IMG/VR virus record: IMGVR_UViG_3300028534_000014
Location: 55,272-119,271 of that record
Length of the DNA: 64,000 bases
Reading direction: 5' to 3' (one strand)
Origin: a virus
Program-made: the position numbers and the translations under genes
In this document: piece by piece, positions 14,280-58,742 of the stretch
How positions within the stretch are numbered: the stretch's first letter is position 1
Layout: each line of letters opens with the position of its first letter
Notes under the pieces: generated by a model
What the model was told of the DNA's origin: nothing
Database searches by the model: none
The model's input: the letters and a program-made list of their open reading frames with translations, nothing else

Positions 14280-15170
14280 ATGAAATTAACTAATATAGCC
14301 AATCTTAAAGGAACGCTGTATTATGATCGAATGGTTATGCTACAAACTATATTAGATAATCAGTTAGTGGATTATCTACAAAAAGCATTAAGCTATTTTG
14401 GTTATAATTATGTTAAAGTAACACATATATTAGACACACCTACTATTATAGCATTTATAACACATCCTAATAGTTTAGAGATTATCCAGGCAGTCAAAGC
14501 CCTGAAAGAGGCTGATGATAGTAGAAACAGGATAGTCAGGGATAAGTTAGTAGGTAAGCAGACTATTATGTCTTTCTTACATGCTAATGAGGGCGATGAT
14601 ATAGCCTGGCTTCCAGGTGAAAAGGGTGTGACAGGACCAATGGGTGTTTATAGCTACTTACACCCTAAGTCTGAGCCTATACAGTTATTAAAAAGGTTAT
14701 ATAAAAAATATGGATATAATTTTTATAATAGAACACATGCTAGATTAATGAATAGAGCTATCTCTAAGAGTGAAAGAGAAGCTTTGATAGAGAGTGCTTG
14801 GTTATACTATAAAAAGACATATTTAGTAGATACATTAGATTTCCTTAAATATTATCCTAAGAGCTATTTAACACTTTTTAGCAATAATCTTAATGCAGGT
14901 AAGAGTAGAGGGATAAAAGTGCTTCAGGAGGCTGTTGGGGCCTATAGTGATGGCATTCCTGGTAAAAAGACTGTGAAGACTGTGCTTAATTATGTTAAAG
15001 TACATAAAGATAATGGACTTAATCAAGCTCAGTTATCATTTATGGCTAAATTCTATATATACTTATGCACTAAATCTAAAAGAGCTAAACACTTCTTTAA
15101 GTTTAGAAAAGGATGGTGCAATAGATTGAAATATTTAGGATTTAAAACAATTAAAAATACTTGTGTCTAG
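14280..15170 (+). CDS. Endolysin: GH108 muramidase + PG_binding_3, with a degenerate N-terminal PG-binding-like segment
   Basis: NEGDDIAWLPGEKGVTGPMGV resembles GH108 EGG...DPGG.T.YGI. NNLNAGKSRGIKVLQEAVGAYSDGIPGKKT. C-terminal FRKGWCNRL. Confidence 0.8.
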   Translation: MKLTNIANLKGTLYYDRMVMLQTILDNQLVDYLQKALSYFGYNYVKVTHILDTPTIIAFITHPNSLEIIQAVKALKEADDSRNRIVRDKLVGKQTIMSFLHANEGDDIAWLPGEKGVTGPMGVYSYLHPKSEPIQLLKRLYKKYGYNFYNRTHARLMNRAISKSEREALIESAWLYYKKTYLVDTLDFLKYYPKSYLTLFSNNLNAGKSRGIKVLQEAVGAYSDGIPGKKTVKTVLNYVKVHKDNGLNQAQLSFMAKFYIYLCTKSKRAKHFFKFRKGWCNRLKYLGFKTIKNTCV

Positions 15171-15183
15171 CATATGCTAGACA
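15164..15183 (+). terminator. Perfect 20-bp palindrome, CATATG core
   Basis: TGTCTAGCATATGCTAGACA over the endolysin TAG. T7 tract 7 nt downstream. Confidence 0.65.
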
Positions 15184-15202
15184 TGAGTTATTTTTTTATT
15201 GT

Positions 15203-15219
15203 ATATCATTGTTAAATAG
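15203..15219 (+). promoter_or_regulatory. Putative phage promoter motif (degenerate copy)
   Basis: T-tract then ATATCATTGTTAAATAG, ~20 nt before the dut RBS. Confidence 0.4.
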
Positions 15220-15241
15220 AATATAATAATAAGGAGAAATA

Positions 15242-16240
15242 ATGTTTAAAACATTAACTAAAGAAGATATTGTTGATTATATAGTGGACGGTATAAAGGA
15301 CAGAAGTGCTAATGATTTATATAGTTATATAGAAATACTAAATATAGAACATGATGGGTATGCTAAGATTAAGATACCGTTTACTTATCTTCTAGCACGA
15401 GATACAGTGGATGATTTAGATGCACTGTATAGAGAAATGTCTTTATATACAATAGAAGAACTAACGATGCGTGTTAATGAAATAATATCAGATTATAGTC
15501 GTATTAAACTAGTAGAGAAGATAAGTGATTTTATTAATAGTGAAAGTATCAAAAATAACCCAATCCTAGAAGTCTCTGAACTATGTGAAATGTTTATATT
15601 ACAAAATAAACTAAACAAAAAAACAATAGGCGATAATTGGAGCATTATAGACTATATTGATAATAAACGTATCGATTGGTTTACATATATCATAACAGAG
15701 TTAGCTGAGGCTATAGAGAGTTTGAATTATAAACATTGGAAACAGCAGAAGAATGATATAGATAACTTCTTAATAGAAGCTGTAGATGTTATGCATTTTA
15801 TCATAAGTAAGATTATTAAAGATAATAGTACTAAACCAAGAAATAGCGATATGTTATGCAGATTAGCAACAACTGTTTTTCAAGATGCTAGAATGGATAG
15901 AATAATGCCTAATGATATGGAAATAGACATTGATGGGGTTATAGATGCAATAAAAGATATAATGAAAAAACCTAATTCTAATCAGTCTATCTTATTAAAT
16001 TACATTAAGATGTTAGAGAAAGCACATATCTCATTATTTACTATATATCAAATATATCTAGGTAAGAATATACTGAATGAATTCAGACAAAATAATGGAT
16101 ATAAAGATGGGACCTATATTAAGATATGGGATGGTATTGAGGATAATATCTATATGCTAAATAAGATAAAAGATGGTATAGATATTGATGACTTATATGA
16201 GATATTAGAGAATAAATATACTAAAATACGAAGTAGATAG
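15242..16240 (+). CDS. dut: Dimeric all-alpha dUTPase (Campylobacter/trypanosome type) with ~110-aa N-terminal extension
   Basis: Motifs LQNKLN, ELAEAIESLNYKHWK, EAVDVMHF, KNILNEFRQNNGYKDGTYIKIWDGIEDN. Confidence 0.9.
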   Translation: MFKTLTKEDIVDYIVDGIKDRSANDLYSYIEILNIEHDGYAKIKIPFTYLLARDTVDDLDALYREMSLYTIEELTMRVNEIISDYSRIKLVEKISDFINSESIKNNPILEVSELCEMFILQNKLNKKTIGDNWSIIDYIDNKRIDWFTYIITELAEAIESLNYKHWKQQKNDIDNFLIEAVDVMHFIISKIIKDNSTKPRNSDMLCRLATTVFQDARMDRIMPNDMEIDIDGVIDAIKDIMKKPNSNQSILLNYIKMLEKAHISLFTIYQIYLGKNILNEFRQNNGYKDGTYIKIWDGIEDNIYMLNKIKDGIDIDDLYEILENKYTKIRSR

Positions 16241-16263
16241 TAGGTCATATGACCTGCTATCTA
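16234..16263 (+). terminator. 30-bp palindrome, CATATG core, one U-G pair
   Basis: TAGATAGTAGGTCATATGACCTGCTATCTA over the dUTPase TAG. Confidence 0.65.
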
Positions 16264-16312
16264 TACATTATTTATGACTCAAATAGTTCATTAGACGAAA
16301 AAGGAGAAAGTT

Positions 16313-18445
16313 ATGATAAAAGAATTTGTAAATAGTTTAGATAAATATACTTTTGAACTAAAACCCATTGAGGGAGCTAAGAATAAGATGGTTTTATACT
16401 TAATGGAAAAGTATAATATATCCCGAGATAAGGCTATAGATATAGTAAATAAAGCCATAACTGAAAAAGGTCCTATTAACCCCACGGTTAAATATTGGGA
16501 AAGAGATAAAAAGACATTAGACAAACATGAAAGGAGTATATCTCTATCAAATTATATACATACTATAACATCAGAAGATTTAATCATTGTGCCTAGCGGT
16601 ACCTGTTATATCAAGAAAGATGAATATGGTCAAGATATAAAGTCATTAGACGCAGAATGGACTGTTGATAATATGATACGCCGTAACGAGGAGAAGAGTG
16701 AAGCTAAGAAACTTAAAGCCTTAGGGGAGTTTGAGAAAGCTGAAATACCTGATACATTGCAAAATGTTATGAAGACTAAGAATAACTCTTTGTCTGGTAT
16801 TTATAGTTTACAACATTTACCTATATCTACCCATAGCGCTCATTATACTTTAACCTCTATTACTAGAGTGACTTCAGGTATAGGTAACATACTAAGCGAG
16901 AAATTAGTCGCAGGTAATCGATTTTATAGAGTAAAGAATGATGTTTTAGCAGAGTTTGTGAGTTTACTGGAAGCTAGTAATTATGATAATGTTAAAAATG
17001 TAATAAATAAATATAAACTAGTAGAGCCGACTACTGATAACGTTATTGATATGATTATTGATAGTAGTAAATGGTATTGGAGTGATAGAAATTATATCTC
17101 ATTTATTAGAGAATTTATAGATGAATTAGACGGTATACAAAAAGCCATTATCTTATATACTCACGATATGTTTCACCTATATAAATTAAATAGAGAGTTT
17201 ATGACCACTATGGTAAATAAAATGGCATACAAAACATCAACTATTACTGATGATATAGAGATTATCAAGAGTGCAGATGAGTCTATTAAAAATATCGTAC
17301 ACCATATATGTGCTAAAGAGTTAAGAGGCAAAGGCATGGATTATGATAAATTTAAAGGGACGCAGATAGGCAATACATTAGCTAGTACTACATATCATCT
17401 ACTAGCCATGTTAGAACGATATAGTGATTTTATCTCAGCATTCTTTAAAGATGTATTCCTTATACCTATTAATACTGCTTCTGTTAAAGAGATGGTTAGG
17501 AAGTCTATATCATTATCAGATACAGATAGCACTTGTGCATCCTATTTTAGTCTAATCAATAATGATAAGGTTATGTTCCAAACAGACTTTAGTGATATAG
17601 CTAAATCATCTATCATTATGATGTTCAATACAGAGACGATGAACCATCTACTCCGTATATATGCATCACAAATGAACGCAAGAAAAGAGCATTACGATAG
17701 AATAAAGATGAAACCTGAGTTTTTCTGGGATGTATTTATACCTATGAATGGTTCTAAGCATTATATTAATAGGTCAATGGTAGAAGAGCTTATTGTGCTA
17801 CCTGAAGATAAATTAGAACCATCGTCATCAGGAGTTTCATTAATAGCATCTAAATTACCTATTAAATATAGCGAGAAACTGGACGAATTTAAAACCTGGT
17901 ACATAGATATGGCTACAGGGAAAGTGCCTGTGTCTATAGGCGAATTCGTCGATAAGATTATAGCTATAGAACAAGATATTGTTGAAACCTCTACTAAGTC
18001 CCCGTTTGAGGTATTAGGTATAGAGAAGATTAAACCTATGAAAGATTATAGTAACTCTTGGGATAAATCTCCTTATTTTTATTATGAGTTATATATAAAG
18101 ACTATAGGCAATAAATACGGTAAAATTGATGAAGCTCCTATACTTACCGTAAAAGTACCAGTTACAACAAGTAAAAAACAACTACTAGATAACTGGATAG
18201 CGACTCTATCCCCTAAGCAACAATATGGCATTAGAGGAGTATTGGAAGAGAGTGGTAAATCGGCTATTAATATATGGAGAATACCTAAAGGAGTTGCGGA
18301 GGCTCATGGTATTCCAACAGAATTATTAAACATAATAGATTATAAGAAGATTATTCTTAATATAATGAAACCATTCTATATGTTAGCGGAAGCCGCTGGT
18401 ATATATGTTTATGAAGACACTACCTTTAGCGAGGTTTATATCTAA
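16313..18445 (+). CDS. Split family-B DNA polymerase, catalytic subunit (phiKZ gp050-like)
   Basis: Q..MKT.NNSLSG (motif B-like) and SLSDTDSTC (YGDTDS-like motif C). No exonuclease domain recognised. Confidence 0.82.
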   Translation: MIKEFVNSLDKYTFELKPIEGAKNKMVLYLMEKYNISRDKAIDIVNKAITEKGPINPTVKYWERDKKTLDKHERSISLSNYIHTITSEDLIIVPSGTCYIKKDEYGQDIKSLDAEWTVDNMIRRNEEKSEAKKLKALGEFEKAEIPDTLQNVMKTKNNSLSGIYSLQHLPISTHSAHYTLTSITRVTSGIGNILSEKLVAGNRFYRVKNDVLAEFVSLLEASNYDNVKNVINKYKLVEPTTDNVIDMIIDSSKWYWSDRNYISFIREFIDELDGIQKAIILYTHDMFHLYKLNREFMTTMVNKMAYKTSTITDDIEIIKSADESIKNIVHHICAKELRGKGMDYDKFKGTQIGNTLASTTYHLLAMLERYSDFISAFFKDVFLIPINTASVKEMVRKSISLSDTDSTCASYFSLINNDKVMFQTDFSDIAKSSIIMMFNTETMNHLLRIYASQMNARKEHYDRIKMKPEFFWDVFIPMNGSKHYINRSMVEELIVLPEDKLEPSSSGVSLIASKLPIKYSEKLDEFKTWYIDMATGKVPVSIGEFVDKIIAIEQDIVETSTKSPFEVLGIEKIKPMKDYSNSWDKSPYFYYELYIKTIGNKYGKIDEAPILTVKVPVTTSKKQLLDNWIATLSPKQQYGIRGVLEESGKSAINIWRIPKGVAEAHGIPTELLNIIDYKKIILNIMKPFYMLAEAAGIYVYEDTTFSEVYI

Positions 18446-18489
18446 TGCTATAGTTTTATGATTACAAATCAATACATAAAAGAGGTGAG

Positions 18490-19002
18490 ATGATAATTAT
18501 TACTAGCAATGGATTAGAAGTAAGTGATATAAAGAGAAGACTAGCTGCGTATTTAGATATCTTTACAATTAGTAAGGTTGATGATGGTATTGTTATAAGA
18601 GTCCCGCATAAACTAAAATATACTAATACTGATACCTTGTGGTTAGTTAGAAATTCATTAGAGAAAATTGATAATATCATTATCAAGGATATTAAGAGAA
18701 CACCGGTGGCAGAAGTATTAGATGATATTACTCTATATGAGCAGATTAAAGATAATGAATTAACATCAATTGAACGCGGGTTTATATCATTAGTACCGAA
18801 GGTATTATTAAAGAGACCTACAAAATATCATGATAGTCTAAATGGTTATCCCCAATACGAAATGCTAAAAAGAGATGTCTTTAAAATAAAGACAGACTTA
18901 CCTAAGAGTTCAGGTGATAGATTAGTACTGTCTAGATTAATAGATAGTATATTCTTATTTATAAATAAAAGGTTAGATTATGTCCCAGCACTGGCGAAAT
19001 AG
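18490..19002 (+). CDS. Hypothetical protein
   Basis: 170-aa ORF with GAGG RBS, downstream of the polymerase. Confidence 0.6.
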   Translation: MIIITSNGLEVSDIKRRLAAYLDIFTISKVDDGIVIRVPHKLKYTNTDTLWLVRNSLEKIDNIIIKDIKRTPVAEVLDDITLYEQIKDNELTSIERGFISLVPKVLLKRPTKYHDSLNGYPQYEMLKRDVFKIKTDLPKSSGDRLVLSRLIDSIFLFINKRLDYVPALAK

Positions 19003-19288
19003 TAAAGAGTGGCATAGTGCTAGAAATCTAGCATTAGAATTGCATCCCTATTGCGATATATGCGGAGCTACTTCTAGATTACAGGTACATCATATGGATG
19101 ATGCTAGTTATCATCCTGATGAACGATATATACAATCTAACTTGAAAGTCTTGTGCTATAAGTGTCATTTCACAATGCTACATATACTCTATAAAGGCGG
19201 TACTAGGAGGAAGACTACAAAAAAAGATTACAGAAGATTTAAAGCTTTGGCTAAATACTATATAAAGACATCGTATACTACTAGATAG
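18980..19288 (+). CDS. HNH endonuclease
   Basis: CDIC...LQVHH...NLKVLCYKCH: Zn-knuckle plus HNH signature. Confidence 0.9.
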   Translation: MSQHWRNSKEWHSARNLALELHPYCDICGATSRLQVHHMDDASYHPDERYIQSNLKVLCYKCHFTMLHILYKGGTRRKTTKKDYRRFKALAKYYIKTSYTTR

Positions 19289-19310
19289 CCATATGGCTAT
19301 CTAGTAGTAT
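19275..19310. terminator. Perfect 36-bp palindrome between convergent genes, CATATG core
   Basis: ATACTACTAGATAGCCATATGGCTATCTAGTAGTAT. The two TAG stops (19286-88 and 19297-99) are symmetric about the centre. Confidence 0.7.
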
Positions 19311-19743: not shown

Positions 19744-19755
19744 AAAACTCCTTTT

Positions 19756-21768: not shown

Positions 21769-21840
21769 TTAGTAATCCTTTAAGTGTAATCAATTAAACT
21801 CGTGTCTGTATTTTATATGATTAACATAAAAAGGATGCAT

Positions 21841-24195
21841 ATGAGACTAGTAAGACATGACTATCGAATAGCGAAGACTTCTAATAAAAAGAAGATTGAC
21901 CCCGAAACAGAACCGAAAAAAATACGATTCGAAGATATAGCAGATAGTAATATAGATGCGTTAATGGACTATAACATAAGAAAGACTAGAGATGTTAATG
22001 ATATTCTAATACTATTCCCAGATATTAATCTAGCTATAGATATGATGGTTTCCTCAATTATATCTCCAAACGATTTCGAAAATGTGACATTCAATGTTTC
22101 TAATATGAGCAATAAAATACCATCTAATATATTAGCTATACTAAATGATATAATGACACAAGAGTTAGCAAACTATTATGATTTAACAGAGAAGTTACCT
22201 CATATGACTTATGAAGCGTTTGCTACTAAAGGAGCATATGTGGAAATAGTAGTTAGCACTACTAGTATGTTTAACTTTTTTAAAGAAAGGCATAATACCA
22301 TAGATAAAAATGGTACCACAATAGAAGCATTATCAGATGTGATAGATAGATATGTAGGACATAGTAGTAATACTAGAGTGGTTAAAGTTAATGATAAGTC
22401 TATAAGCATTAGTAGCGATTTAAACTTATTATGCATAGGTGACGCATATACAGACCTATTGGCTGAGAAGAAAGCACTTGATAAGAAAGGTAAAGTAGGG
22501 TTAGAACTCGATGTTATATCTCAATTGAATAGCTACTTTGAAGCAGAGGCTATTAAAAGAGATAATAAAGGAGTAATTCAACTATCATATAGTACACCAA
22601 CAGACTTGAGACCGCATAATCTAGTATTAGACCCTAATAGCGTTATACCATTATACGCATCCGGCGATAAAAGAGATATCTATGGAGCATTTGTTATTAT
22701 AGATACTGAGACTGGTAAACCCATAGACACGGCTAAGTATCAATATATCCAAGAGGAACAATTAAAGGAGCAGGAAAAGAATGATGTCTTTACCCTTACA
22801 TCTCTCATAGTCGCTGAAGCTGAGAAAGGTCGTAAAAAAGACTTAGAGAAAGCGCCTGAACTAAAAATCTCAGTAGCTGAAAGAGAGCTTGTGAGAAGAA
22901 ACATAGAAGCGATAGCTAGCGAGTTTATAGATCCCAAATTACTAGATAACGATACTGTTAAATTTGTGCAAGCTGTAAGTATGGCTGAAGGGCTATTGAA
23001 GAGCGGTACTAGCATTATTTACATACCGAAAGAACAATTATTCTATTTAGCATTTAATTACAGAGAGAATGGTACAGGTAAACCTATACTAGAAGATATA
23101 TATAGTCTAGCTAGTATGAGAGCGCTATTATTCTATAGTAGAGTAAATGCACAGATAGAAGGTAGTATTACTAAAACAAAGGTTAAGGTCGAGATACCAT
23201 CTCAGGATAACCCTAAGGTAAGGATACCGGAGATAGATAAGTATATCTTAAATAATATTAAGAAAAAGGTACCTTGGGGTATAACTAACCCAAGTCTTAT
23301 ATCTAGCTGGATACAGCGTGCTGGATTAAATGTAGAATATGTACATGACACCCTACCTAAGTATGAAGTAGATGTCATGGAGTCTGGGAGAGAGCTACAC
23401 GAGCCTAACGAGGATTTAGAAAAAACTATTAAAGATAGAATAACAGCTCGTATAGGTATGACTCCTGAAGTAGTTGAGAACGGTATGGCTGATGCTAACT
23501 TTGCGGCAGGGATTATTGCCGAAAAAGGCATGTTGGCTAAAAGAGTCTATATGAAACAATTAGTATTAAATAGAGGATTAAATCAATATGCTCGGATTAT
23601 TGGTCTAAATGACGGTGTTGTCTACAATAGACTAATCAGCGCTATTGAGAGTAACTATGATGAAATTATAAACTCTTTTTCAGATGAATTTAAAGATAAA
23701 CTCAAAAACATTAAAGTAGATAAAGATGGAATGGCTAAATATCTAGTAAATGACTACTTTAATTATATAGATATCACTCTCCCTAAACCTAATGTAAATG
23801 ATGAAGAAGTTAAGACTGATCATTTCAATAATTTTAAAGACAATTTATCAGATGTAGTTGATTTCTTTTTCGATGATGCTGGTATTAGTGATTTATTAGG
23901 AGATAAGAGTGACGATATTAAGAAAGGTCTTTTATATACTAAGATGTCAGAATATCTCAATACTAAAGGTTATTTCAATGATATTACAGAAATAGTTAAC
24001 ATTGTTAAAGGTAACGATGTTAAAATAAATACATTAGACGTGATCTCGAACTTAAAAAAGAAATTCGAAGAAGCAATAAAAGAACATACCGAACACAGTG
24101 ATGCAGAAGAAGAGAATACAGCACCTAAGACTTCTACTAAGAAAAATGATGGAGTAGAAAGTAATAATAATAATGATAATAATGATAACTGGTAG
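21841..24195 (+). CDS. Portal protein (phiKZ gp129-like)
   Basis: DILILFPDINLAIDMMVSSIISP and NGTGKPILEDI..LASMRALL. Start placed after the AAGGA RBS (ORF track uses GTG 21802). Asn-rich tail. Confidence 0.75.
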   Translation: MRLVRHDYRIAKTSNKKKIDPETEPKKIRFEDIADSNIDALMDYNIRKTRDVNDILILFPDINLAIDMMVSSIISPNDFENVTFNVSNMSNKIPSNILAILNDIMTQELANYYDLTEKLPHMTYEAFATKGAYVEIVVSTTSMFNFFKERHNTIDKNGTTIEALSDVIDRYVGHSSNTRVVKVNDKSISISSDLNLLCIGDAYTDLLAEKKALDKKGKVGLELDVISQLNSYFEAEAIKRDNKGVIQLSYSTPTDLRPHNLVLDPNSVIPLYASGDKRDIYGAFVIIDTETGKPIDTAKYQYIQEEQLKEQEKNDVFTLTSLIVAEAEKGRKKDLEKAPELKISVAERELVRRNIEAIASEFIDPKLLDNDTVKFVQAVSMAEGLLKSGTSIIYIPKEQLFYLAFNYRENGTGKPILEDIYSLASMRALLFYSRVNAQIEGSITKTKVKVEIPSQDNPKVRIPEIDKYILNNIKKKVPWGITNPSLISSWIQRAGLNVEYVHDTLPKYEVDVMESGRELHEPNEDLEKTIKDRITARIGMTPEVVENGMADANFAAGIIAEKGMLAKRVYMKQLVLNRGLNQYARIIGLNDGVVYNRLISAIESNYDEIINSFSDEFKDKLKNIKVDKDGMAKYLVNDYFNYIDITLPKPNVNDEEVKTDHFNNFKDNLSDVVDFFFDDAGISDLLGDKSDDIKKGLLYTKMSEYLNTKGYFNDITEIVNIVKGNDVKINTLDVISNLKKKFEEAIKEHTEHSDAEEENTAPKTSTKKNDGVESNNNNDNNDNW

Positions 24196-24220
24196 TATAG
24201 AGGTTTAAACCTCTATACTA
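24193..24220. terminator. Perfect 28-bp palindrome between convergent portal and sbcC
   Basis: TAGTATAGAGGTTTAAACCTCTATACTA. It begins at each gene's TAG. Confidence 0.7.
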
Positions 24221-26533: not shown

Positions 26534-26622
26534 AATTATCCCTTCTTATTTCATCTACTTAAATAGTGCCTATGTTTAAATTGTAGATAGCGATTGTATG
26601 AACTGATATAAAGGATTTATAT

Positions 26623-27477
26623 ATGAGAACAGAATTACGATCAGGTTTTAGGGTCGCGGGTATTGGTGTAGTAGTAGAACATCTGAAACCTACTTCTTTA
26701 TACGCCAAAATTCATCTATTAGAACATATGGGATCGCACACAGTAACATTTGAGGATAAAGAAACTAATACAAAGAGTGCCACGAAGCATAACTTTAGTA
26801 ATCCATTAGGGGGGATAGTTACACCAGATGTAAAGTTCGATACAGTTATAGAAGCCAGATGGTTGCATAGTAATGGTAACAGAATATCTCCACCGACGCT
26901 GTATAGAGGTGAGACGGTTAAGGTATACCAATATGCTGATAGCGACCAATACTTTTGGGAGCCTATGTATTATGAACCAGATATCAGAGGAAAAGAGGTT
27001 GGAGTATTTGCTTATAGTAACTTAGAGAAAAGAAAGAAAGGTGAAAGAGAGAAGAACTTTCTTAAGATGATGGATAAAGATAGTAGCTATTGGTATAAGA
27101 TAGATACTATTAATAAGAAGGTCCATTTACATACAAGTAATAATGACAAAGAACCTGCTACTTGGGATATTGGTATAGATACTAAGAAAGGTATCTTTAG
27201 ATTAGAAAATAGCAAGAATAACTATTTCGAGATGAGTTTAGACCATATCTTTATGAAGACTACGCACTTTAAAGTTATAGCTAATGATGGTACATGGCTC
27301 TTAAAGAAAAAAGGATTATTCAATACCCCTGATTTAACTATTAAAGGAGGCGTGTTAAATATACTATCTAAAACTATACATAAAGCTATGACAATATTTA
27401 AGGCTGCTACTAATTTTAAAGCTAGCGTTAAGATTAATAAGAATACTAAAACAACAGATGGATCAAGTGTACTATAG
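26623..27477 (+). CDS. Baseplate central spike/tail tip (phiKZ gp164-like)
   Basis: OB-fold-like N-terminus (IEARWL..NRISPP.LYRGETV.VYQYAD.D.YFW) and beta-helix-like C-terminus. Divergent from sbcC. Confidence 0.72.
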   Translation: MRTELRSGFRVAGIGVVVEHLKPTSLYAKIHLLEHMGSHTVTFEDKETNTKSATKHNFSNPLGGIVTPDVKFDTVIEARWLHSNGNRISPPTLYRGETVKVYQYADSDQYFWEPMYYEPDIRGKEVGVFAYSNLEKRKKGEREKNFLKMMDKDSSYWYKIDTINKKVHLHTSNNDKEPATWDIGIDTKKGIFRLENSKNNYFEMSLDHIFMKTTHFKVIANDGTWLLKKKGLFNTPDLTIKGGVLNILSKTIHKAMTIFKAATNFKASVKINKNTKTTDGSSVL

Positions 27478-27497
27478 ACTCATATGAGTCTATAGTA
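27470..27497 (+). terminator. Perfect 28-bp palindrome, CATATG core
   Basis: TACTATAGACTCATATGAGTCTATAGTA over the spike TAG. Confidence 0.65.
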
Positions 27498-27525
27498 TTA
27501 TATATTTGGTTCTTTTTTTATTAAC

Positions 27526-27551: not shown

Positions 27552-27573
27552 AATATACATTTAAGGAGATAAA

Positions 27574-28296
27574 ATGAAAGTTCTTTTATTATTAGTGGCT
27601 ATAACACTAACCGTTATAGGAGTAGAACCCCAAAAGCTATTTGCGAAACTGCATAATGATAAACCTACGCCATCTACATCTGTCCCGGAAGATAGAACCG
27701 GACGCCATGATATGGTGTACGGGAGAGCGAAAGAAATAGCCATATTTCAGATGTATTATCTGAAGGCTAAGAAGGAGGCTGTACTCTTACATAAAGCTAA
27801 AATAGAGAGGCTATTATATAAAGGTATAACAGTTAAAGCACGTAAAGACATACCTGCTTTAACTAATGCTATATTGAAATACAGCAATATGTATAAAGTC
27901 GATGCTAGCGTCATTGCCGCTATAGTCATTAAAGAGAGTAGCGGTAGATCGTGGATTAAACACAAGCCTGTAACTGTGGCAGTGCCTTTAGCTCCTAATT
28001 GGACTAAAGTGGGATGCCAGAAAGTGCAAGCTATTGGGGCTATGGGTGTAATATGGGAAATCTGGAAGTACGACCTAAAGAAAATAGGTCTTACTAAGAA
28101 GGACCTATTCACCATTGATGGTAATATAAAAGCGGGGACATATATCTATAAGAAATATATGGATAAACCTAAAATAAAAGGTGCGCCTAGTAAAAGAGCC
28201 AGTGCGCTTTCTCGCTTTTATGGCATAGTAAGAGACAAGTCCGGGAAATTGAACTTAACTTACTACAAGCAAGTTCAAAACATAATAGATGGTTAG
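27574..28296 (+). CDS. SLT-family lytic transglycosylase with N-terminal signal/anchor
   Basis: MKVLLLLVAITLTVIG hydrophobic N-terminus. IAAIVIKESS (catalytic Glu), AIGAMGV, NIKAGTYIY. Confidence 0.82.
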   Translation: MKVLLLLVAITLTVIGVEPQKLFAKLHNDKPTPSTSVPEDRTGRHDMVYGRAKEIAIFQMYYLKAKKEAVLLHKAKIERLLYKGITVKARKDIPALTNAILKYSNMYKVDASVIAAIVIKESSGRSWIKHKPVTVAVPLAPNWTKVGCQKVQAIGAMGVIWEIWKYDLKKIGLTKKDLFTIDGNIKAGTYIYKKYMDKPKIKGAPSKRASALSRFYGIVRDKSGKLNLTYYKQVQNIIDG

Positions 28297-28313
28297 GTCC
28301 ATGCCTAACTATC
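28288..28313 (+). terminator. 10-bp hairpin with a G-U pair
   Basis: GATGGTTAGG-TCCATG-CCTAACTATC over the SLT TAG. Confidence 0.6.
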
Positions 28314-28337
28314 GTTATTCGATTTTTTTTTATTAAT

Positions 28338-28393: not shown

Positions 28394-28675
28394 ATGAAGA
28401 AAAGACAACTAGCACAAGAAGTTGCAGAAAGAACAGGGATAGATAGCAAAGAGGTAGAAATCATTATTGATAATATGTTATCAATAACGATGGAGGCACT
28501 AAAAGCTGGAGAGGGTATCGGATTTAAGGGGTTTGGCTCTATCAAACCGGTGGTAAAGAAAGAAAGGGAAATCTTTATACCTGGTACGGGTAAGAAGATA
28601 AAGGTTGAGTCTAAGGTGAGTATACAGTTTCGACCTAGTAAAACACTCAAGGACTACGTAAATACAAAGAATTAA
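28394..28675 (+). CDS. hup: HU/IHF-family DNA-binding protein
   Basis: MKKRQLAQEVAERTG...GFGS....ER...PGTGKKI.V.....FRPSKTLKD.VN. Confidence 0.92.
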   Translation: MKKRQLAQEVAERTGIDSKEVEIIIDNMLSITMEALKAGEGIGFKGFGSIKPVVKKEREIFIPGTGKKIKVESKVSIQFRPSKTLKDYVNTKN

Positions 28676-28685
28676 TTCTTTGTAT
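28662..28685 (+). terminator. Perfect 24-bp palindrome at the HU stop
   Basis: ATACAAAGAATTAATTCTTTGTAT followed by a T-rich tract. Confidence 0.62.
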
Positions 28686-28758: not shown

Positions 28759-29433
28759 ATGATAATGCATAAGAAAGGTAATATATTTGATACTGAATGC
28801 CAAACTATAGTTAATACAGTAAATACAGATGGAGTTATGGGAGCTGGTATTGCTTTAGAATTTAAAATAAGATTTCCAGATATGTTTGAAGAGTATCTAG
28901 AGCTATGTAAACAGGAAATAATAAAGATAGGATATATGCAACTATATACTATACCTATCAATCCTATAGGTAAATATGAAAAGATACTAAATTTCCCAAC
29001 TAAGACTACTTGGAGACTTCCGTCTAAACACTCTTATCTAGAAATCGGTTTAAAGGCTCTTAGCAAGCAATATAAGGCACTTAGAATAACTTCTATAGCG
29101 TTTCCCTTACTAGGAGCTAATAATGGTAAAATTGGCTCTGAGGACTCTATTCGCATAATGGAAGAACATTTAATAGACTTTGATATACCTATAGAGATTT
29201 GGACATTAGATCCAAAGGCTAAAGATAAGGTTTTTGAAGCATTTAGAAATCGCATGCTTAGTTTAGATAATAACGTTTTAAAAGATATGTTAAAACTATC
29301 CGATAAAGTTATTAATACTCTGAAAGTTCATCTTCATAGAGACGATGTTAATAGTTTTAGCATCTTATCGAGAATAAAAGGTTTAAATAATAAAATAATA
29401 ACACAAGCATATTATAATCTAGACAGTCTCTAA
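28759..29433 (+). CDS. DarG-like macrodomain ADP-ribosylhydrolase with a possible C-terminal HhH segment
   Basis: KGNIF...IVNTVNTDGVMGAGIALEFK.RFP, NFPTKTTWRLPS, SIAFPLLGANNG. C-terminal LSRIKGLNNK. AAGGAG RBS 6 nt upstream of ATG 28759. Confidence 0.85.
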   Translation: MIMHKKGNIFDTECQTIVNTVNTDGVMGAGIALEFKIRFPDMFEEYLELCKQEIIKIGYMQLYTIPINPIGKYEKILNFPTKTTWRLPSKHSYLEIGLKALSKQYKALRITSIAFPLLGANNGKIGSEDSIRIMEEHLIDFDIPIEIWTLDPKAKDKVFEAFRNRMLSLDNNVLKDMLKLSDKVINTLKVHLHRDDVNSFSILSRIKGLNNKIITQAYYNLDSL

Positions 29434-29444
29434 AGACTGTCTAG
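29419..29444. terminator. 11-bp hairpin whose 4-nt loop holds both convergent stop codons
   Basis: CTAGACAGTCT-CTAA-AGACTGTCTAG. TAA on + (29431-33) and TAG on - (29430-32). Confidence 0.68.
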
Positions 29445-47831: not shown

Positions 47832-49109
47832 ATGTTTAGATACCCAAGAGAATTAGAGTTAATTAACAAACCGATTAGTGTCATGCCTAACAGTATTGTT
47901 GCTGCTATTGTAGGTGATAATGATAATCTAAGAGATATAGAAATAGAAAAGATAGCCGATATCGTAACGAATGAAGTGTTATTCTATAGAAATAATATAA
48001 ATCCTTTGTTTAATACATTAGGCACCAAGATCACGGAACTTAAAGATAATATTATGAACATTAACAGTACTATCAATCTACAACAGGTAGTAGTTCCTAC
48101 ATTTATCCAAATGATGGATGAAGAGAATTATTATAATGAAAATAGAGGAGATTATACAGGTGACGTGGTATTCATTCCAAAGGATGCTAATATTAAAGAA
48201 TTAGCTAAGAGTCTAAATGATTTTAATCCTGTAATATCTGATGTTAAAAAGTACATAGCAGGCGTTACTAATGCAGATGTTCAAGAAGCGATTGAATTAC
48301 TTAATAGTTCAGTTCGATTAGATGACTCATTTAGTAACTATAGCAGAAAGTTATCAAACCTAGGAACAATTACTAATGCGTTAGCCGTTGCATATATACT
48401 TAGATATAGTGACCCTGTTGACGGTACATTAGGAACTATTGATGATTATGAGAGATATCTAGATAGCATCTCTAATAGATTTATAGCTATTACTACCGGT
48501 ATATATAGAATGGTAAAAAGATACATGGAAGAGACTAATCCTATAGTGGTTATTGGTTATGAAGAAGATGCTGATACAGTATTTGTTACATCGGCTATCA
48601 CAAATGTATATAGAGCCGGAGTTAATGTGGATGCTGTTTTAGGCGCTGGCGTATCAGGGCAGAAACGTGTATATTCTTTAAGTGATATTGTAGATAATAA
48701 AGATACTTATACAAAAGTCTATCAAGATCATATGACTACTATCATTACTAAGGGTCGTATAAAACAATTGAGTATATTTAGAGAGAAGTTAACTTCTTTA
48801 TTACTATCATATGTAGAGAATAGTGAGTATCCAGAGCTAGGTCTATCTTTAAGAGATAGTAAACTATTCCTTATAAATCTATTAGATAATGATGAGAAGA
48901 TTATGTATACATATGATATACTAAGAGAATTCATCTTAGGATGCCTATACGCTAAGACTAATGCTAAGAGACTATATGACAATATAGAATACTTTAAAAG
49001 CATTAGTTCTGCAATGAATAATTATCAGACAGATGATAAGATTTATATTACATTAGCTGTTAGTAAATTGGTTGAAGAGTTTTTACTTAAACAAATTAGC
49101 GTAGGGTGA
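47832..49109 (+). CDS. Head/ejection protein (phiKZ gp177 / SPN3US gp243-like)
   Basis: Syntenic between vRNAP beta and the beta'-C subunit. ATG 47832 follows an AGGA RBS. Confidence 0.55.
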   Translation: MFRYPRELELINKPISVMPNSIVAAIVGDNDNLRDIEIEKIADIVTNEVLFYRNNINPLFNTLGTKITELKDNIMNINSTINLQQVVVPTFIQMMDEENYYNENRGDYTGDVVFIPKDANIKELAKSLNDFNPVISDVKKYIAGVTNADVQEAIELLNSSVRLDDSFSNYSRKLSNLGTITNALAVAYILRYSDPVDGTLGTIDDYERYLDSISNRFIAITTGIYRMVKRYMEETNPIVVIGYEEDADTVFVTSAITNVYRAGVNVDAVLGAGVSGQKRVYSLSDIVDNKDTYTKVYQDHMTTIITKGRIKQLSIFREKLTSLLLSYVENSEYPELGLSLRDSKLFLINLLDNDEKIMYTYDILREFILGCLYAKTNAKRLYDNIEYFKSISSAMNNYQTDDKIYITLAVSKLVEEFLLKQISVG

Positions 49110-49123
49110 TCCCTATGCTAATT
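49094..49123 (+). terminator. 13-bp hairpin with a G-U pair and the stop in the loop
   Basis: AATTAGCGTAGGG-TGAT-CCCTATGCTAATT. Confidence 0.62.
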
Positions 49124-49166
49124 TTACTAAGCGCGGTTATCTGAAAAAAGATATGAAGGACATATA

Positions 49167-49877
49167 ATGGATTATAAGAAGTTAAAAGAGAACCCTAGAA
49201 AAATACAAAGTATACTTAAAACAGATGGCGAGAATATAATAACTACCGAAACATTGTATTTAATCTTTCCTGAGCGTTTTATTACTAAAGATATAGCAAT
49301 GATAGGGCGTACAGTAGAAACGCCTTGTATATACCTTTTACACGACGCTAATGGTAACTATATTAAACAACTAATACCTACAAGAGTATCATTTATACCT
49401 AATGCTGTTGAAGATATTGAAATAGAAGGTAAGAAGTATAAAAAACTAACATTTATTAAAGGTGCTGTTTTTAATAATGGTAAGATGGTTATTGATAAAG
49501 ATATCCCATTTATATTACAAGATGACTGGATAAATAAGAGTGGGAATATACCATTCTTTATAAATATGGATGATATACAAAAAGTATTTATTAATGGCGT
49601 TGTTTATGGAGGTTCGGTGGTAGGTAGTAACCCTGTTCCTATAGCTACATTTATATCCATAATCGCTAGAGATAGTAAAAATAGATATGTTAGACAATAC
49701 TATACAAAGGAACAAATTAAGCATATGAAGATTAAATTTGTAGGATTAAGTAAAGTTAGCGCAGTATATAATAATGTATTCAGTGCTATTACAGGAGCAT
49801 ATTTAAAACAAGGAATAGCGGCTTCGTTAAATATGGATAACCCGGGTCAGACAAAAATAGATGCAGTATTAAATTAG
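49167..49877 (+). CDS. Virion RNAP beta' C-terminal subunit (phiKZ gp176 / SPN3US gp244-like)
   Basis: 236 aa. C-terminal KFVGLSKVSAVYNNVFSAITGAYLKQGIAASL aligns by eye with beta' region H (LLGITKASL.TESFISAASFQET..VL..A). Synteny agrees. Confidence 0.62.
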   Translation: MDYKKLKENPRKIQSILKTDGENIITTETLYLIFPERFITKDIAMIGRTVETPCIYLLHDANGNYIKQLIPTRVSFIPNAVEDIEIEGKKYKKLTFIKGAVFNNGKMVIDKDIPFILQDDWINKSGNIPFFINMDDIQKVFINGVVYGGSVVGSNPVPIATFISIIARDSKNRYVRQYYTKEQIKHMKIKFVGLSKVSAVYNNVFSAITGAYLKQGIAASLNMDNPGQTKIDAVLN

Positions 49878-49901
49878 TGCTAGGTATATGCCTAGCACTA
49901 A
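49874..49901. terminator. Palindrome between convergent genes, TATATG core
   Basis: TTAGTGCTAGG-TATATG-CCTAGCACTAA. TAG stops at 49875-77 and 49898-900 are symmetric. Confidence 0.68.
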
Positions 49902-52404: not shown

Positions 52405-53166
52405 ATGGCATTAATGACTCTTAACAATGAGTTGATAGATTTAAAAGATAAACTAGAGGTATTTAGTAAACCGGATGAGAACGGTTACTACCCTGTAGTA
52501 TTAGGCGCGTTTAATGTATACGCTAGTAACGGGGCTTTCTATAAGATAACAGAAAACTTAGTTAGATTATTTGGACCTGAGGCTTATATTAACATGAAAG
52601 CTAAGAATGGACAATTAAAAGCTGAAGCTGAGCATCCGAAGTTTGTTAAAGGCATGACTAAAGAGGAGTGGCTACAGCGATTAGCTATGACTGATGAGAA
52701 GTATACTTGTGGATTGTTCGGAGAAGTTAAACTAGATGATGTTCCTAGACGATTAACAACGCAAAAAGGTGAAGCTTATCTAACTTTAGGTAAAATCAAA
52801 CCTATTGGAAAGTATGGAGACGCTTTAAAGAGTGACCTTGAGACTCCTGATAGTAATACTAGTTTTAGTATTAGGGCATTAAGTAATCGTAATGTAATTG
52901 CAGGTATAGATGTTAGAGAGATATTTGCTATTTATGGATGGGATTGGACTAATAGAGGCGCTATTAGTGGAGCCGGTACAAGGACGTTAGTAGAATTACA
53001 ATCATATGGTCTACAGGTAACTACGGAAGAGTTAAGTGCTATGATAACTCATCTAGAGCAAACTTCAAATCCTGAAGAGCTATTAAGTTGCCAATATGAT
53101 TTAGAAGTAACTAAGCATGCTATTAAGAGATGTAGCGGTGGTGTATGTATAACTAAAGACTGGTGA
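52405..53166 (+). CDS. Prohead maturation protease (phiKZ gp175-like)
   Basis: GYY.VVLGAFN...NG..Y, EAEHP (His), SFSIRA (Ser), WDW (Asp) catalytic triad pattern. Confidence 0.85.
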   Translation: MALMTLNNELIDLKDKLEVFSKPDENGYYPVVLGAFNVYASNGAFYKITENLVRLFGPEAYINMKAKNGQLKAEAEHPKFVKGMTKEEWLQRLAMTDEKYTCGLFGEVKLDDVPRRLTTQKGEAYLTLGKIKPIGKYGDALKSDLETPDSNTSFSIRALSNRNVIAGIDVREIFAIYGWDWTNRGAISGAGTRTLVELQSYGLQVTTEELSAMITHLEQTSNPEELLSCQYDLEVTKHAIKRCSGGVCITKDW

Positions 53167-53186
53167 TAGCTTATGCTATCATCAGT
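53159..53186 (+). terminator. 12-bp hairpin with a G-U pair at the protease stop
   Basis: ACTGGTGATAGC-TTAT-GCTATCATCAGT. Confidence 0.6.
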
Positions 53187-53212
53187 TTTATGATTAAAGT
53201 AAAAGGACTGAT

Positions 53213-55291: not shown

Positions 55292-55317
55292 ACTATAGTA
55301 CCATATGGTACTATAGT
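55292..55317. terminator. Perfect 26-bp palindrome between convergent genes, CATATG core
   Basis: ACTATAGTACCATATGGTACTATAGT. Confidence 0.68.
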
Positions 55318-56927
55318 GCTAATTTTTGTTCATCAGTTAATAAGGCTGTATTTGTAGATATGACTATTGGTAACCTATTTATAACTAGAAACTGTCTATA
55401 ATAACTTCTAATATATAATGACCTATATCTCATTAGATATGTAATGTCTTTATATACCTTATTATCAATGTTCTTTAATGTATCGATTAATCTACCCATC
55501 TTTACATACTTATCTTGCCTAAAGTAAAGTGTAGGTATACTATCGCTTGGTGGTATATCACATATACCATTCTTTAATCCTGTTCTTCTATAGCTCATCT
55601 GTTCAAAATTATCCACTATATCAACAAATTCAAAACCAAGTTTACTTAAATCGATAGGGTCGTATCTTTTAGGTTTACTATACGTTTTACTAAGAGTAAA
55701 TTTAATATCATCTATGCCATCTCCTCTTGTAATAGATGGTTTAGGCTGCACTTTAACGGACTTTCTATCTAAAGTTTCTAGTGTTAAGGGAACTATATCA
55801 TGCTCCATTTTTCTTAGATATATAGGAACAGTCGTTTCTGATATACTTATAACGAAATCCATAAGCTGATCTACATTATTATTAGGATTATCTGCTATAG
55901 CCTTTGTAGTAATAATCGCTATCTGCGCTAATTTAAGATTAGCCTCATTAAGCTCTCTAGCTAACTCTTTCTCTAACTCTATCAATTTATAATTTATCTT
56001 ATCAATTTCGGGACTACCTTTTTTAATAAAAGCATCCAATGCATCTCTAGCATCTTGTAAATTCTTTAGCGCATTTTTAAGATCTGTATCGTCTCCGTCT
56101 AATATTAAAGCTTCTAACCTTTCATAATCATCATTTAATGCCTCTCTAGCACTGTTTAAATCGTCAATTATATCGTCTAAGGGTAAATCATTACCTTTAG
56201 TCTTAAATGCCTTTATTTCGTCTTCTAGAGACTTGATATCTGCTAAAGTATTATTTATCTCATTAACTATATCTGATGTGGTGGTATTAGTAGATGCTTT
56301 AGTTAATAGAATGTCTTTATAATCCTTGATGTCTTTCTCTAATTGTGTTCTCTCTAAATTATCATTAGAATTATCTAAATCGTTCTGTAAATCTGCTATA
56401 TGCTCATTGATATCCGTTATAGTCTCACTATGCTGTAAAGCCGTAGCTATATGTGGGTATATATCCTTAGAGTGTCCTGAACATGATAAACCTGCTATCA
56501 GAATAGCAAGAATGATAGTATCCAGTTTTCCCCAATTAGCCTTTTTAGTATCTTCAACATCTATACATAAAGCATTTAATAAGTTCATAATACCTGTGAT
56601 ATCGTATAAACTTAATCCGAAAGCTCCTAATAATGATGATAAGAAATTTAATACCATATCTACGAACTTGTCTATGGTATCTATTATCATATCTAATATA
56701 GCTAATATCCAATCTATAAAGTCTAATATCTTCTTAACCAGCCCTTTTAAGAAAGATAAACCTTTCTTTAATGCTGATATTAAATCTTTAATACCTGGTA
56801 ATTTCGATAAATAGTCATTAGACTCTACTTTACCTATATAATCATCTAATGGAAAACTATTAAGAGTATCATCTATATGATCTCTCAAGTTTACACCGGC
56901 GTTCTTTAATCCGTCTAAGGTTTTCAT
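55311..56927 (-). CDS. Putative virion protein with amphipathic helices and a long acidic coiled coil
   Basis: Amphipathic segment FLKGLVKKILDFIDWILAILDMIIDTIDKFVDMVLNFL, hydrophobic IILAILIAGLSC, and a heptad-rich D/E/L region. Confidence 0.6.
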   Translation of the reverse strand: MKTLDGLKNAGVNLRDHIDDTLNSFPLDDYIGKVESNDYLSKLPGIKDLISALKKGLSFLKGLVKKILDFIDWILAILDMIIDTIDKFVDMVLNFLSSLLGAFGLSLYDITGIMNLLNALCIDVEDTKKANWGKLDTIILAILIAGLSCSGHSKDIYPHIATALQHSETITDINEHIADLQNDLDNSNDNLERTQLEKDIKDYKDILLTKASTNTTTSDIVNEINNTLADIKSLEDEIKAFKTKGNDLPLDDIIDDLNSAREALNDDYERLEALILDGDDTDLKNALKNLQDARDALDAFIKKGSPEIDKINYKLIELEKELARELNEANLKLAQIAIITTKAIADNPNNNVDQLMDFVISISETTVPIYLRKMEHDIVPLTLETLDRKSVKVQPKPSITRGDGIDDIKFTLSKTYSKPKRYDPIDLSKLGFEFVDIVDNFEQMSYRRTGLKNGICDIPPSDSIPTLYFRQDKYVKMGRLIDTLKNIDNKVYKDITYLMRYRSLYIRSYYRQFLVINRLPIVISTNTALLTDEQKLAL

Positions 56928-57038: not shown

Positions 57039-57503
57039 ATGGATATAGGAAATTACGCTAGAGTATCATCTATAAGGAATGCAATACTAACCGGTGTATA
57101 TGGCTCTAATAGTGAGGAAGCGTATCTAGCACTCAAAATGGCTATATCAGATTTTCTTATAAATAACCCACAGCTCGATGCCGACGACCTTGTATCTATA
57201 CCTGCTTATATCAGATTAGGCACGATATTACAAGAAAGACTGGAGAGTATTAAGCATGTTCGATATGCAGTAGTTACATTAGAAGTTGATATAGTGGAAA
57301 TTGTATTTAATAATGGTAAAGGGTATATATATAAATATGCTCAGAAAGATATAGAAATATATAGCATAAACGATATGTCTATATCTAATGATATTGATGA
57401 AGAGATTATAAGTGTTATGACAGAGTTTTTAGAAGAGTATAAATTTTTCAATAATGAAAGTGTAGAAACACCGAAGAGTCCTGATATAGTACAAGTCTAC
57501 TAA
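57039..57503 (+). CDS. Hypothetical protein
   Basis: AAAGGA RBS, preceded by the repeated motif. Confidence 0.65.
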   Translation: MDIGNYARVSSIRNAILTGVYGSNSEEAYLALKMAISDFLINNPQLDADDLVSIPAYIRLGTILQERLESIKHVRYAVVTLEVDIVEIVFNNGKGYIYKYAQKDIEIYSINDMSISNDIDEEIISVMTEFLEEYKFFNNESVETPKSPDIVQVY

Positions 57504-57522
57504 TAACAAAAAATATATGCAC

Positions 57523-57539
57523 ATATCATTTAGATAGTC
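57523..57539 (+). promoter_or_regulatory. Putative phage promoter motif
   Basis: ATATCATTTAGATAGTC (identical to 56989) upstream of 57592. Confidence 0.6.
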
Positions 57540-57591
57540 ATAAGGATATATGCATAATCCCGAGACTTAAAAACTTTATAAAGGAATAACA

Positions 57592-58218
57592 ATGGCTGTA
57601 CAACCAGAAGACGTGGAATCTATAGATACTGTAGATAACATACAAAACAACGAGGTTCCGGAACAAGATGATCCTAAGACATCTATCGATGAAGAGGGCG
57701 ATAATACACTAACTGAAGAAGAGCAATTCTCTAAAGAGATAGATGTAGCAATAGCGACTCTTAACCAACTCTATAGTAATGAAACTGATGAAGATGGTAA
57801 GATTAACCTATCTCCAGATATCAATGCTATTAGCAGCATTATCTTCAAATTAGCAGGACTGACCAATAGTGCTGAGATTATGTCAACTATATTGAGAGAT
57901 ATGGAAGACAAAACAGTATTAAATTTCAGTATACGAAAAGAGTTAATCCAATTAGATAAAGATATAAAAGGACTGGAAGTTAGATATATAAGAATAAATA
58001 AAATTGATGTATTTAACTTTATTGTAACGTATGATGAAGATGTAAAGGTGGAATTTGCTGTTATCGTAAAAGATAATAAAATATCATTTGCATCTCCTGC
58101 GGACCAAGATTATGATAATGGGAAGTTGGCTATATTACAAAACAACGCAGTCGAGGCGCTTAAAGCCTCTTATGATAAATTATACCCTAATAAAGAGGAG
58201 GGCAATGAAGATGAGTAA
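57592..58218 (+). CDS. Hypothetical acidic protein
   Basis: AAAGGA RBS, D/E-rich N-terminus, preceded by the repeated motif. Confidence 0.7.
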   Translation: MAVQPEDVESIDTVDNIQNNEVPEQDDPKTSIDEEGDNTLTEEEQFSKEIDVAIATLNQLYSNETDEDGKINLSPDINAISSIIFKLAGLTNSAEIMSTILRDMEDKTVLNFSIRKELIQLDKDIKGLEVRYIRINKIDVFNFIVTYDEDVKVEFAVIVKDNKISFASPADQDYDNGKLAILQNNAVEALKASYDKLYPNKEEGNEDE

Positions 58219-58690
58219 AGAAATTAAAATTAGTGCAAAATATAGCACTAAAGAGAAAGTAAAGAAGGTGAAAATAGGCACTGGTGACGATGTTAAAATT
58301 AAAGAAGTAAAAATCATCGAAGCTATTATTGAAGGTAACCCATATGTAGATAACTATGATGGTGAAAAAGCCGAGCTAAAGAAAGTTGAGACATATCGCA
58401 ATGAGTTCGGTGCAGTAGCTAGAACTGAAGGTGCTAAGATTGCAGGTGAACTACTTAAGGAGAATAAAAAGGTCGATAGAGCTATCGTAAAAGTGCCTGC
58501 TGGCGTATCTTCTAGAGAAAAAATTACGGTAATTGGAAACAGAGAAGTGTCTCAGTATGACAGAGATACCAAAACTGTGAAAAAAGTACCAGGTGTAGGA
58601 TTTAAGGTAGAAAGCGCAGTTGACCCGAAATCGGGGGCGAAATCTATTAAGGAAGCAAAAGCGGCTTTCTTAGAAGCGTTAAGTAAATGA
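58211..58690 (+). CDS. Small Lys-rich hypothetical protein
   Basis: GAGGAG RBS at 58195-58200. ATG 58211 or 58205; the ORF-track start 58088 lies inside the previous gene. Confidence 0.7.
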   Translation: MSKEIKISAKYSTKEKVKKVKIGTGDDVKIKEVKIIEAIIEGNPYVDNYDGEKAELKKVETYRNEFGAVARTEGAKIAGELLKENKKVDRAIVKVPAGVSSREKITVIGNREVSQYDRDTKTVKKVPGVGFKVESAVDPKSGAKSIKEAKAAFLEALSK

Positions 58691-58695
58691 TATAC

Positions 58696-58742
58696 TACTA
58701 GATACCATATGGTATCTAGTAAATATAATTTCTTTTTTTTTA
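58696..58742. terminator. Perfect 26-bp palindrome, CATATG core, plus T-tract
   Basis: TACTAGATACCATATGGTATCTAGTA, then TTTCTTTTTTTTT at ~58729-58741. Confidence 0.68.

Follow-up and report, generated by a model that had tools for sequence, protein, structure and literature searches.

We analyzed a 64,000-nucleotide stretch of viral DNA (hereafter the window), which covers bases 55272-119271 of the 157,169-bp IMG/VR record IMGVR_UViG_3300028534_000014 (G+C 32.6%) and carries a series of palindromes centred on the hexamer CATATG. The record is about 58% complete, so the absence of any gene from it stays unproven. Among the genes of the window are a divergent family B DNA polymerase (PF20286; at most 28% identity to the polymerases of cultured phages), RNA polymerase beta subunits of the phiKZ type (41938-43560 and 43573-47613), and an SMC_N/SbcC-like gene (24218-26533), and the uncultured phage is a jumbo phage distantly related to phiKZ. 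A megablast search gave no near-identical phage record. The nearest relative by DNA polymerase (P0003, 43% identity) is encoded on a 168-kb contig, and the relatives P0002-P0006 have polymerases of 38-43% identity. Viral contigs scanned with a single protein for relatives gave no match, while the metagenome scan for relatives gave one 3.2-kb contig. The phage is part of a deep-branching, vent-associated clade of phiKZ-like phages. DNA near-identical to window 15000-24900 was observed in an epibiont metagenome, perhaps the source sample. It was also observed in an unlabelled run of 2025, which matched 92% of the words sampled, and in metagenomes of hydrothermal vents from independent studies, with 78% and 34% of words. 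Among the public runs listed for this phage, none was an RNA run.

An earlier note on this DNA had placed CATATG at 15171, 16246, 19290, 27481, 55302, and 58706, and TATATG at 49885, in the middle of palindromes with related arms. Each of these seven positions does centre an inverted repeat, and the arms quoted for 19275/58692 and 27471/55292 match the sequence letter for letter. When folded as RNA, all seven sites give a single stem capped by an AUAU loop of 4 nt, and the closing pair is C-G or, at 49885, U-G. Their folding energies range from -15.7 to -30.1 kcal/mol (z = -4.5 to -8.4), and 0/200 shuffles fold as well. The seven hairpins are as follows:

15159..15188, + strand: CATATG tip at a co-directional junction; gene 14280-15170 has its stop codon within the 5' arm, and seven T (T7) come after the stem
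16234..16263, + strand: CATATG tip between co-directional genes, 49 nt before the start codon (ATG) of the DNA polymerase, with one sense-strand U-G pair
19275..19310, either strand: predicted two-way terminator with a CATATG tip, a perfect 36-bp palindrome where genes 18980-19288 (+) and 19297-19743 (-) converge, with the TAG stops of both genes inside its arms
27470..27497, + strand: CATATG tip at a co-directional junction, then a tract rich in T and, from 27524, a promoter-like motif
49874..49901, either strand: predicted two-way terminator with a TATATG tip, in which U-G closes the AUAU loop on the + strand and the loop on the - strand is 6 nt
55292..55317, either strand: predicted two-way terminator with a CATATG tip, a perfect palindrome where genes 53213-55291 (+) and 55311-56927 (-) converge
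58696..58721, either strand: predicted two-way terminator with a CATATG tip, a perfect palindrome between genes 58088-58690 (+) and 58747-59697 (-)

Such centres are far more frequent than composition would predict. Nine of the 111 CATATG copies in the genome are flanked by at least seven further complementary pairs, where 0.015 are expected, and a tenth centre (window 16246) has one U-G mismatch in its stem. Other palindromic hexamers are far behind, with TATATA forming 4 such centres among 422 copies. Hairpins as a class are also in excess, since 54 with a score of at least 9.5 occur genome-wide compared to 3-11 in 20 dinucleotide-preserving shuffles, and 20 with a score of at least 13 compared to none in dinucleotide shuffles. 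The CATATG palindromes are the commonest version of the phage's predicted terminator hairpins, with a bias that is statistically strong in an element of an ordinary kind. Apart from this, CATATG is 1.7-fold over-represented even outside hairpins (111 genome copies against approximately 64 in dinucleotide shuffles), for which codon usage (CAT-ATG, TAT) is a possible cause. We rejected the idea of a restriction-avoidance signal because the hexamer is over-represented.

A hairpin family at gene 3' ends

Instead of being a distinct element, the CATATG sites belong as tips to a family of some 44 hairpins located at gene 3' ends. Relatives of the phage were gathered through a polymerase alignment with its best database relatives, which gave 11 IMG/VR loci at 29-34% polymerase identity. 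Five of the contigs were read whole, and together with the present genome these make up the six genomes discussed below. All five relatives have the hairpin system, at 2.7-4.3 hairpins per 10 kb, with many stems overlapping stop codons and T runs after the stems. With junctions classed by crude gene calling, this genome has hairpins at 20/21 convergent, 19/107 co-directional, and 0/21 divergent junctions, and the six genomes together have them at 84/92, 115/526, and 6/94, respectively. Of the 61 gene ends that bear a hairpin, 38 have the upstream gene's stop codon within it, and TAG is the stop at 35 of the 61 versus 25/88 of the other ends (p = 6e-4). TAG also makes up 40% of all stop codons in this genome of 32.6% G+C, and the stop codon doubles as stem sequence.

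The sequence after the stem is distinctive as well. Counting from the stem, positions +4 to +16 are 55-71% T at both co-directional and convergent sites, against a background of approximately 33%. At convergent sites the downstream T content of 55-61% is mirrored by 45-63% A upstream, and the T-rich stretch there is the coding end of the opposing gene; stems at these junctions are perfectly Watson-Crick paired, as both strands require. The T-rich tract is offset from the stem by a spacer of 2-8 nt, and a run of four T within 22 nt is missing at about half of the co-directional sites of this genome. The distance from a co-directional hairpin to the next gene is 49-86 nt. A scan with a consensus terminator placed 15159, 16233, 24192, and 27469 among its top sites and returned 13 sites versus 5.7 in shuffles. 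A search for Rfam families gave no match within the window. Further members of the family in the window are the following:

2845..2874, + strand: non-palindromic 6-nt loop that contains a TAA stop
13176..13199, + strand: TTAT loop at a co-directional junction
24193..24220, either strand: self-complementary TTTAAA tip at a convergent junction, with 10 nt of arm in common with the CATATG-tipped hairpin at genome 1603
28288..28313, + strand: weaker family member with one sense-strand G-U pair and a T run after the stem
28662..28685, + strand: ATTAAT tip (TTAA loop) at a co-directional junction
29419..29444, either strand: predicted two-way terminator at a convergent junction, with a CTAA loop and a stop codon in the loop
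35168..35195, either strand: predicted two-way terminator between convergent genes, with a loop of 6 nt
49093..49124, + strand: TGA stop in the loop and one sense-strand G-U pair
53156..53189, + strand: TTAT loop and two sense-strand G-U pairs
61875..61912, - strand: ATAT loop with a U-A closing pair, located upstream of the gene for the tail sheath, with two sense-strand (-) G-U pairs

Logan contigs from other metagenome runs end at long palindromes (window 19306/19307 and about 24278-24290), which is probably an effect of assembly. Outside the window, a region of about 1.5 kb at genome 148330-149800 contains no genes and may serve as a replication origin or in packaging. It includes two perfect palindromes rich in A/T, each 34-36 bp long (genome 148958-148993 and 149025-149058), together with several imperfect hairpins that are repeated.

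Strand-specific pairing, tips, and arms

Transition mismatches in co-directional stems appear as G-U pairs on the sense strand rather than as A-C, in a ratio of 13:0 in this genome, minus-strand genes included, and of 42:6 when the five relatives are added (p = 1e-7). The hairpin at 15159, for example, has two G-U pairs on the + strand and folds at -18.2 kcal/mol on that strand versus -14.2 on the other, and at both 15159 and 16234 the sense-strand fold is the more stable one by 4-4.7 kcal/mol. In the TATATG variants the DNA dyad is broken and the U-G closing pair is kept on one strand. Because the G-U pairs are found on the sense strand only, this pattern points to hairpins that function as RNA, or at least through the sense strand alone, rather than as binding sites in duplex DNA. 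Taken as a site in double-stranded DNA, the protein-binding site proposed in the earlier note is contradicted by these strand-specific pairs, and also by the TATATG variants, which keep only the RNA pairing.

Loops of 4 nt are present at 43/61 hairpin-bearing gene ends, and ATAT is the commonest of them. The A/T-only tetraloops of the six genomes (n = 75) comprise 27 ATAT, 14 TTAA, 7 TTAT, 4 TATA, 4 ATAA, and 2 AATT, among others, so that ATAT is approximately 6-fold above a uniform 1/16 (p = 3e-14); the relatives alone give 15/55 (p = 9e-7). In this genome ATAT makes up 12 of the 20 A/T-only 4-nt loops, with ATAT at 9.7% and TATA at 10% of A/T-only tetramers in the background. Loops of the form WTAW are self-complementary in 41 cases versus 11 that are not (p = 4e-5), and a central TpA is found in about 54/66 perfect palindromes of the six genomes. 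The closing pair differs by lineage, with CATATG:GATATC at 10:0 here and 0:7 in the contig G002 (p = 5e-5). The tip bias is real and clade-wide, favouring self-complementary tetraloops with a central UA step, AUAU and then UUAA.

The arms follow a rule of their own. They are 63% A+T, with TAG/CTA 3.3-fold enriched and AA/TT 3-fold depleted, a rule that also holds in four of the five relatives tested. The exception is G002 (the IMG/VR contig behind locus L004), in which stems are GGG/CCC-rich (7-fold) and phiKZ-like, and the favoured tip is GATATC. Seven arm pairs have at least 9 nt in common versus 3.45 expected under an order-2 Markov model, a number reached in 16/200 simulations, and three pairs have at least 10 nt in common versus 0.5-0.74 expected, reached in 9/200 simulations. 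The near-duplicate arms described earlier are therefore real, but they are only modestly above chance once the restricted vocabulary of the arms is modelled. The same division applies to the broader claim that sequence is conserved and not only structure: the AUAU tip is over-represented both here and in distant relatives, but the arms mostly reflect a restricted vocabulary.

We found little sign that the hairpins are copies of one another. Identical arms carry different tips (genome 82741 vs 137515; 1603 vs 79464), only 2/7 of the best arm pairs combine ATAT with ATAT, and the flanks of the most similar pairs match at 11-15/40 positions, which is the random level. Duplication of whole hairpins was rejected, as arm sharing is near the Markov expectation and the flanks are at the random level. 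For the Y1/RAYT transposase (PF01797), the 157 kb of this approximately 58% complete record gave no match at E <= 1, while control genomes did match. For the eight hairpins at window 12500-32400, compared with contigs of four metagenome runs, no change was present among the 40 of 191 differences listed, where about two were expected. One run (X3) showed T-run length indels just 3' of two hairpins, at 15190 and 28691. Since the flanks are unrelated and no RAYT gene was found, the idea of a dispersed REP-like element is unsupported, and tips and arms assort independently.

The junction upstream of the DNA polymerase gene offers a view of turnover across the clade. In 10/12 loci (9 of the 11 relatives' loci), the polymerase ATG is preceded by a hairpin at a distance of 47-76 nt, where matching position is defined relative to the DNA polymerase gene. 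The arms of these hairpins are unrelated and their loops vary, with ATAT in only two loci. Hairpins at matching positions with unrelated arms and varied loops suggest that structure is kept while sequence, including the tip, turns over. Hairpins of this kind were seen in L002-L005 and L007-L010, near 9740-9960.

Known systems and a promoter-like motif

The closest known parallel is in phiKZ and 201phi2-1. In phiKZ, 133 terminators were identified by ONT-cappable-seq, of which 61 have a conserved stem, an A/U-rich tetraloop, and a TTAT tail (PMC10914365), and in 201phi2-1 the phiKZ terminator motif (motif A) occurs at 59 sites, with eight terminators validated in vivo (PMC11512511). We found the stem pattern 22 times in the phiKZ genome, with a few exact stem-loop words reused, up to eight times. 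The likeness extends to a phiKZ-like phage with its own multisubunit RNA polymerases, dozens of gene-end hairpins that share both sequence and structure, two-way sites at convergent genes, and an A/U-rich tetraloop, for which the phiKZ consensus HWWD fits ATAT. However, the stems here are A/T-rich with TAG/CTA words instead of CCYCCCC/GGGRRGG, many of them hold a stop codon, the tips are strongly self-complementary, and the stem is followed by a plain T-rich tract rather than a TTAT(G) tail (TTAT in 6/24 tails vs 9.6 expected from shuffles; TATG in 2/24). By this comparison, the hairpin family appears to be of the same kind as the phiKZ-type terminators, with a different consensus.

Bacterial two-way terminators between convergent genes, attributed to Ju et al. 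2019 in a bioRxiv preprint (10.1101/2022.10.23.513370), are similar in that one hairpin element serves both convergent genes, as it would at 20/21 junctions here. The E. coli two-way elements are described there as unlike intrinsic terminators and as acting via polymerase collisions (10.1101/2022.10.23.513370), whereas the phage hairpins have U-rich tracts on both sides and are also found at co-directional junctions. The REP/BIME elements of enterobacteria are likewise dispersed palindromes at gene 3' ends that are able to stabilise or terminate transcripts. The phage hairpins differ from these in their freely varying arms, their overlap with stop codons, the lack of a conserved head or flank, the RAYT gene not found, and their location in a phage genome.

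T4-type phages have terminator-plus-promoter cassettes called promoter-early stem-loops (PeSL; PMC2839356), and a promoter-like motif in this genome invites the comparison. The motif is about 30 nt long and consists of ACATATTATT, 3-5 nt, TAGTC, 2-5 nt, RRCTAA, and TAT, with an inverted repeat in the middle. Its 18 genome copies are all on the + strand (in the window at 27524, 28336, 31686, and 51018) and precede the ribosome-binding site and start codon (ATG) of small genes by approximately 10-20 nt. Of the 18, five are directly 3' of a hairpin, three of them with ATAT loops, and most hairpins stand alone. The resemblance to PeSL lies in a small repeated cassette of terminator stem-loop and conserved promoter between small accessory genes; the differences are that most CATATG hairpins lack the motif, that the flanks are unrelated, and that no evidence of recombination or mini-circles was found here. 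A search for the motif in IMG/VR viral contigs gave no match, and five single matches in genome contigs were taken as chance, with no tblastx similarity to the phage.

Termination weighed against other readings

We consider it likely, from the sequence patterns described above, that the CATATG palindromes are the tips of intrinsic terminators, which would work two ways where genes converge; the earlier note had not proposed this. We infer both that transcription actually ends at these sites and which polymerase ends it. Each transcribed palindrome would form a 10-18-bp stem in which a C-G pair closes an AUAU tetraloop, followed by a U-rich tract, and hairpin and tract together would end transcription by the phage-encoded multisubunit RNA polymerases and leave a protected 3' end. 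Between convergent genes a perfect palindrome would give the same hairpin in both transcripts, so that transcription would be stopped in both directions. CATATG is the most frequent tip in this phage, the closing pair would drift by lineage, and the likeness of the arms would come from a common vocabulary in which TAG/CTA words give both the stop codon and G-C pairs and runs of A or T are avoided. Self-complementary tips at co-directional sites may arise through hairpin-templated correction and short-patch exchange between terminators, with selection at the RNA level tolerating the result. We lean towards these two processes as the source of the self-complementary tips, and some short-patch exchange between terminators may have occurred.

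Several observations count against an explanation by intrinsic termination and drift. The stems are rich in A/T, and a gap of a few bases separates them from the T-rich tract. With the stop codon in the 5' arm, coupling of transcription and translation would let the ribosome that terminates there melt the hairpin. Chimallin (phiKZ gp054) went undetected by tblastn and by a search of the phage's own genome, and because the record is only about 58% complete, the phage may or may not form a nucleus that would uncouple translation. Self-complementary loops are about as common at co-directional sites (25/63) as at convergent ones (26/58), so two-way use alone does not explain them. Lastly, the C-G closing pair here versus G-C in G002 could mean a co-evolving reader and not drift.

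Another way to account for hairpins at gene 3' ends is that they mainly stabilise or process the mRNA 3' end by blocking 3'-5' exonucleases, and are not sites where a polymerase stops. Their position and the G-U asymmetry at the RNA level fit this equally well, as do the long stable stems (-15 to -30 kcal/mol) and the offset of the T-rich tract. We nevertheless find it unlikely, as T-richness is selected downstream even within the coding sequence of the opposing gene, which fits termination and not mere protection, and the near-universal occupancy of convergent junctions suggests that stopping the polymerase matters; stabilisation and termination are, moreover, not mutually exclusive. It is also possible that the C(AUAU)G tip is a signal for a non-canonical phage RNA polymerase, or for a termination or antitermination partner, with the loop setting terminator efficiency. 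The excess of ATAT in six divergent phages would agree with this, since TATA is equally common in the genome and yet rare in loops, and so would the lineage-specific closing pair, the independent variation of tips and arms, and the reuse of particular tetraloops in phiKZ terminators. We give this only a small chance of being correct, given that upstream of the DNA polymerase gene the tip is found in just 2/10 loci and the rest have unrelated loops, that two thirds of this genome's family have other loops, and that a strand-specific reader of RNA would not predict the self-complementary excess (41 vs 11 for WTAW). The recognised C(AUAU)G loop suggested in the earlier note also has to contend with the G-C closing pair of one relative. 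A related and similarly doubtful option is that the self-complementary tip is itself a signal, acting through RNA polymerase or a partner or through a DNA hairpin or cruciform, in which case termination would be partly sequence-specific.

Readings at the level of DNA are less probable still. The perfect palindromes might act as duplex or cruciform DNA, either as a dyad site for a dimeric protein or as a structure handled by HU, RuvC, or SbcCD-like proteins, and here the excess of fully self-complementary centres, co-directional sites included, the preference for a central TpA, and the SMC_N/SbcC-like gene can be cited in favour. We regard this as very unlikely because recognition of a duplex does not predict the 42:6 ratio of sense-strand G-U to A-C; in addition, the TATATG variants keep the RNA pairing and break the DNA dyad, divergent junctions have no hairpins (0/21), and the arms of the hairpin that precedes the DNA polymerase gene have no sequence relationship among loci. 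Descent of tip and arms from a dispersed mobile or recombining element (REP/BIME, MITE, or PeSL cassettes) is, in our view, just as improbable. Arm words are modestly over-shared, one cluster of four similar arms exists (genome 68447, 74546, 113967, and 129561), and five hairpins are joined to the promoter-like motif much as in the T4-type cassettes, but against this stand the random-like flanks of the closest pairs, the different tips on identical arms and the few ATAT-ATAT combinations among the best pairs, the Y1/RAYT transposase not found in 157 kb, and, as a weak test, the lack of presence/absence variation among the differences listed for the four metagenome runs. Lastly, as the late promoter core of phiKZ is TATG, with transcription starting at the G and the core being necessary for late transcription (PMC4666361), CATATG could represent back-to-back late-promoter cores for the non-virion RNA polymerase: it holds TATG on both strands, TATATG holds it on the + strand, and co-directional hairpins precede the next gene by a distance of 49-86 nt. 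We consider this extremely unlikely, since half of the CATATG hairpins lie between convergent genes, where a promoter would give only antisense RNA, and G002 favours GATATC, which is without TATG. Furthermore, TATG occurs in 2/24 of the 16-nt stretches after the stems, which is no enrichment, and no TATG-based motif emerged upstream of genes.

If the palindromes are indeed intrinsic terminators, they would provide a map of transcription-unit ends for an uncultured phage whose DNA polymerase has only about 27-34% identity to those of cultured jumbo phages. They would also extend to a distant clade the reuse of terminator sequence and structure described in phiKZ and 201phi2-1, and the hairpins may represent compact two-way terminator parts. 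The self-complementary tip with its UA step is the remaining puzzle, and its solution would tell if the loop is read by the polymerases of these phages or if it is mutation that makes palindromes perfect.

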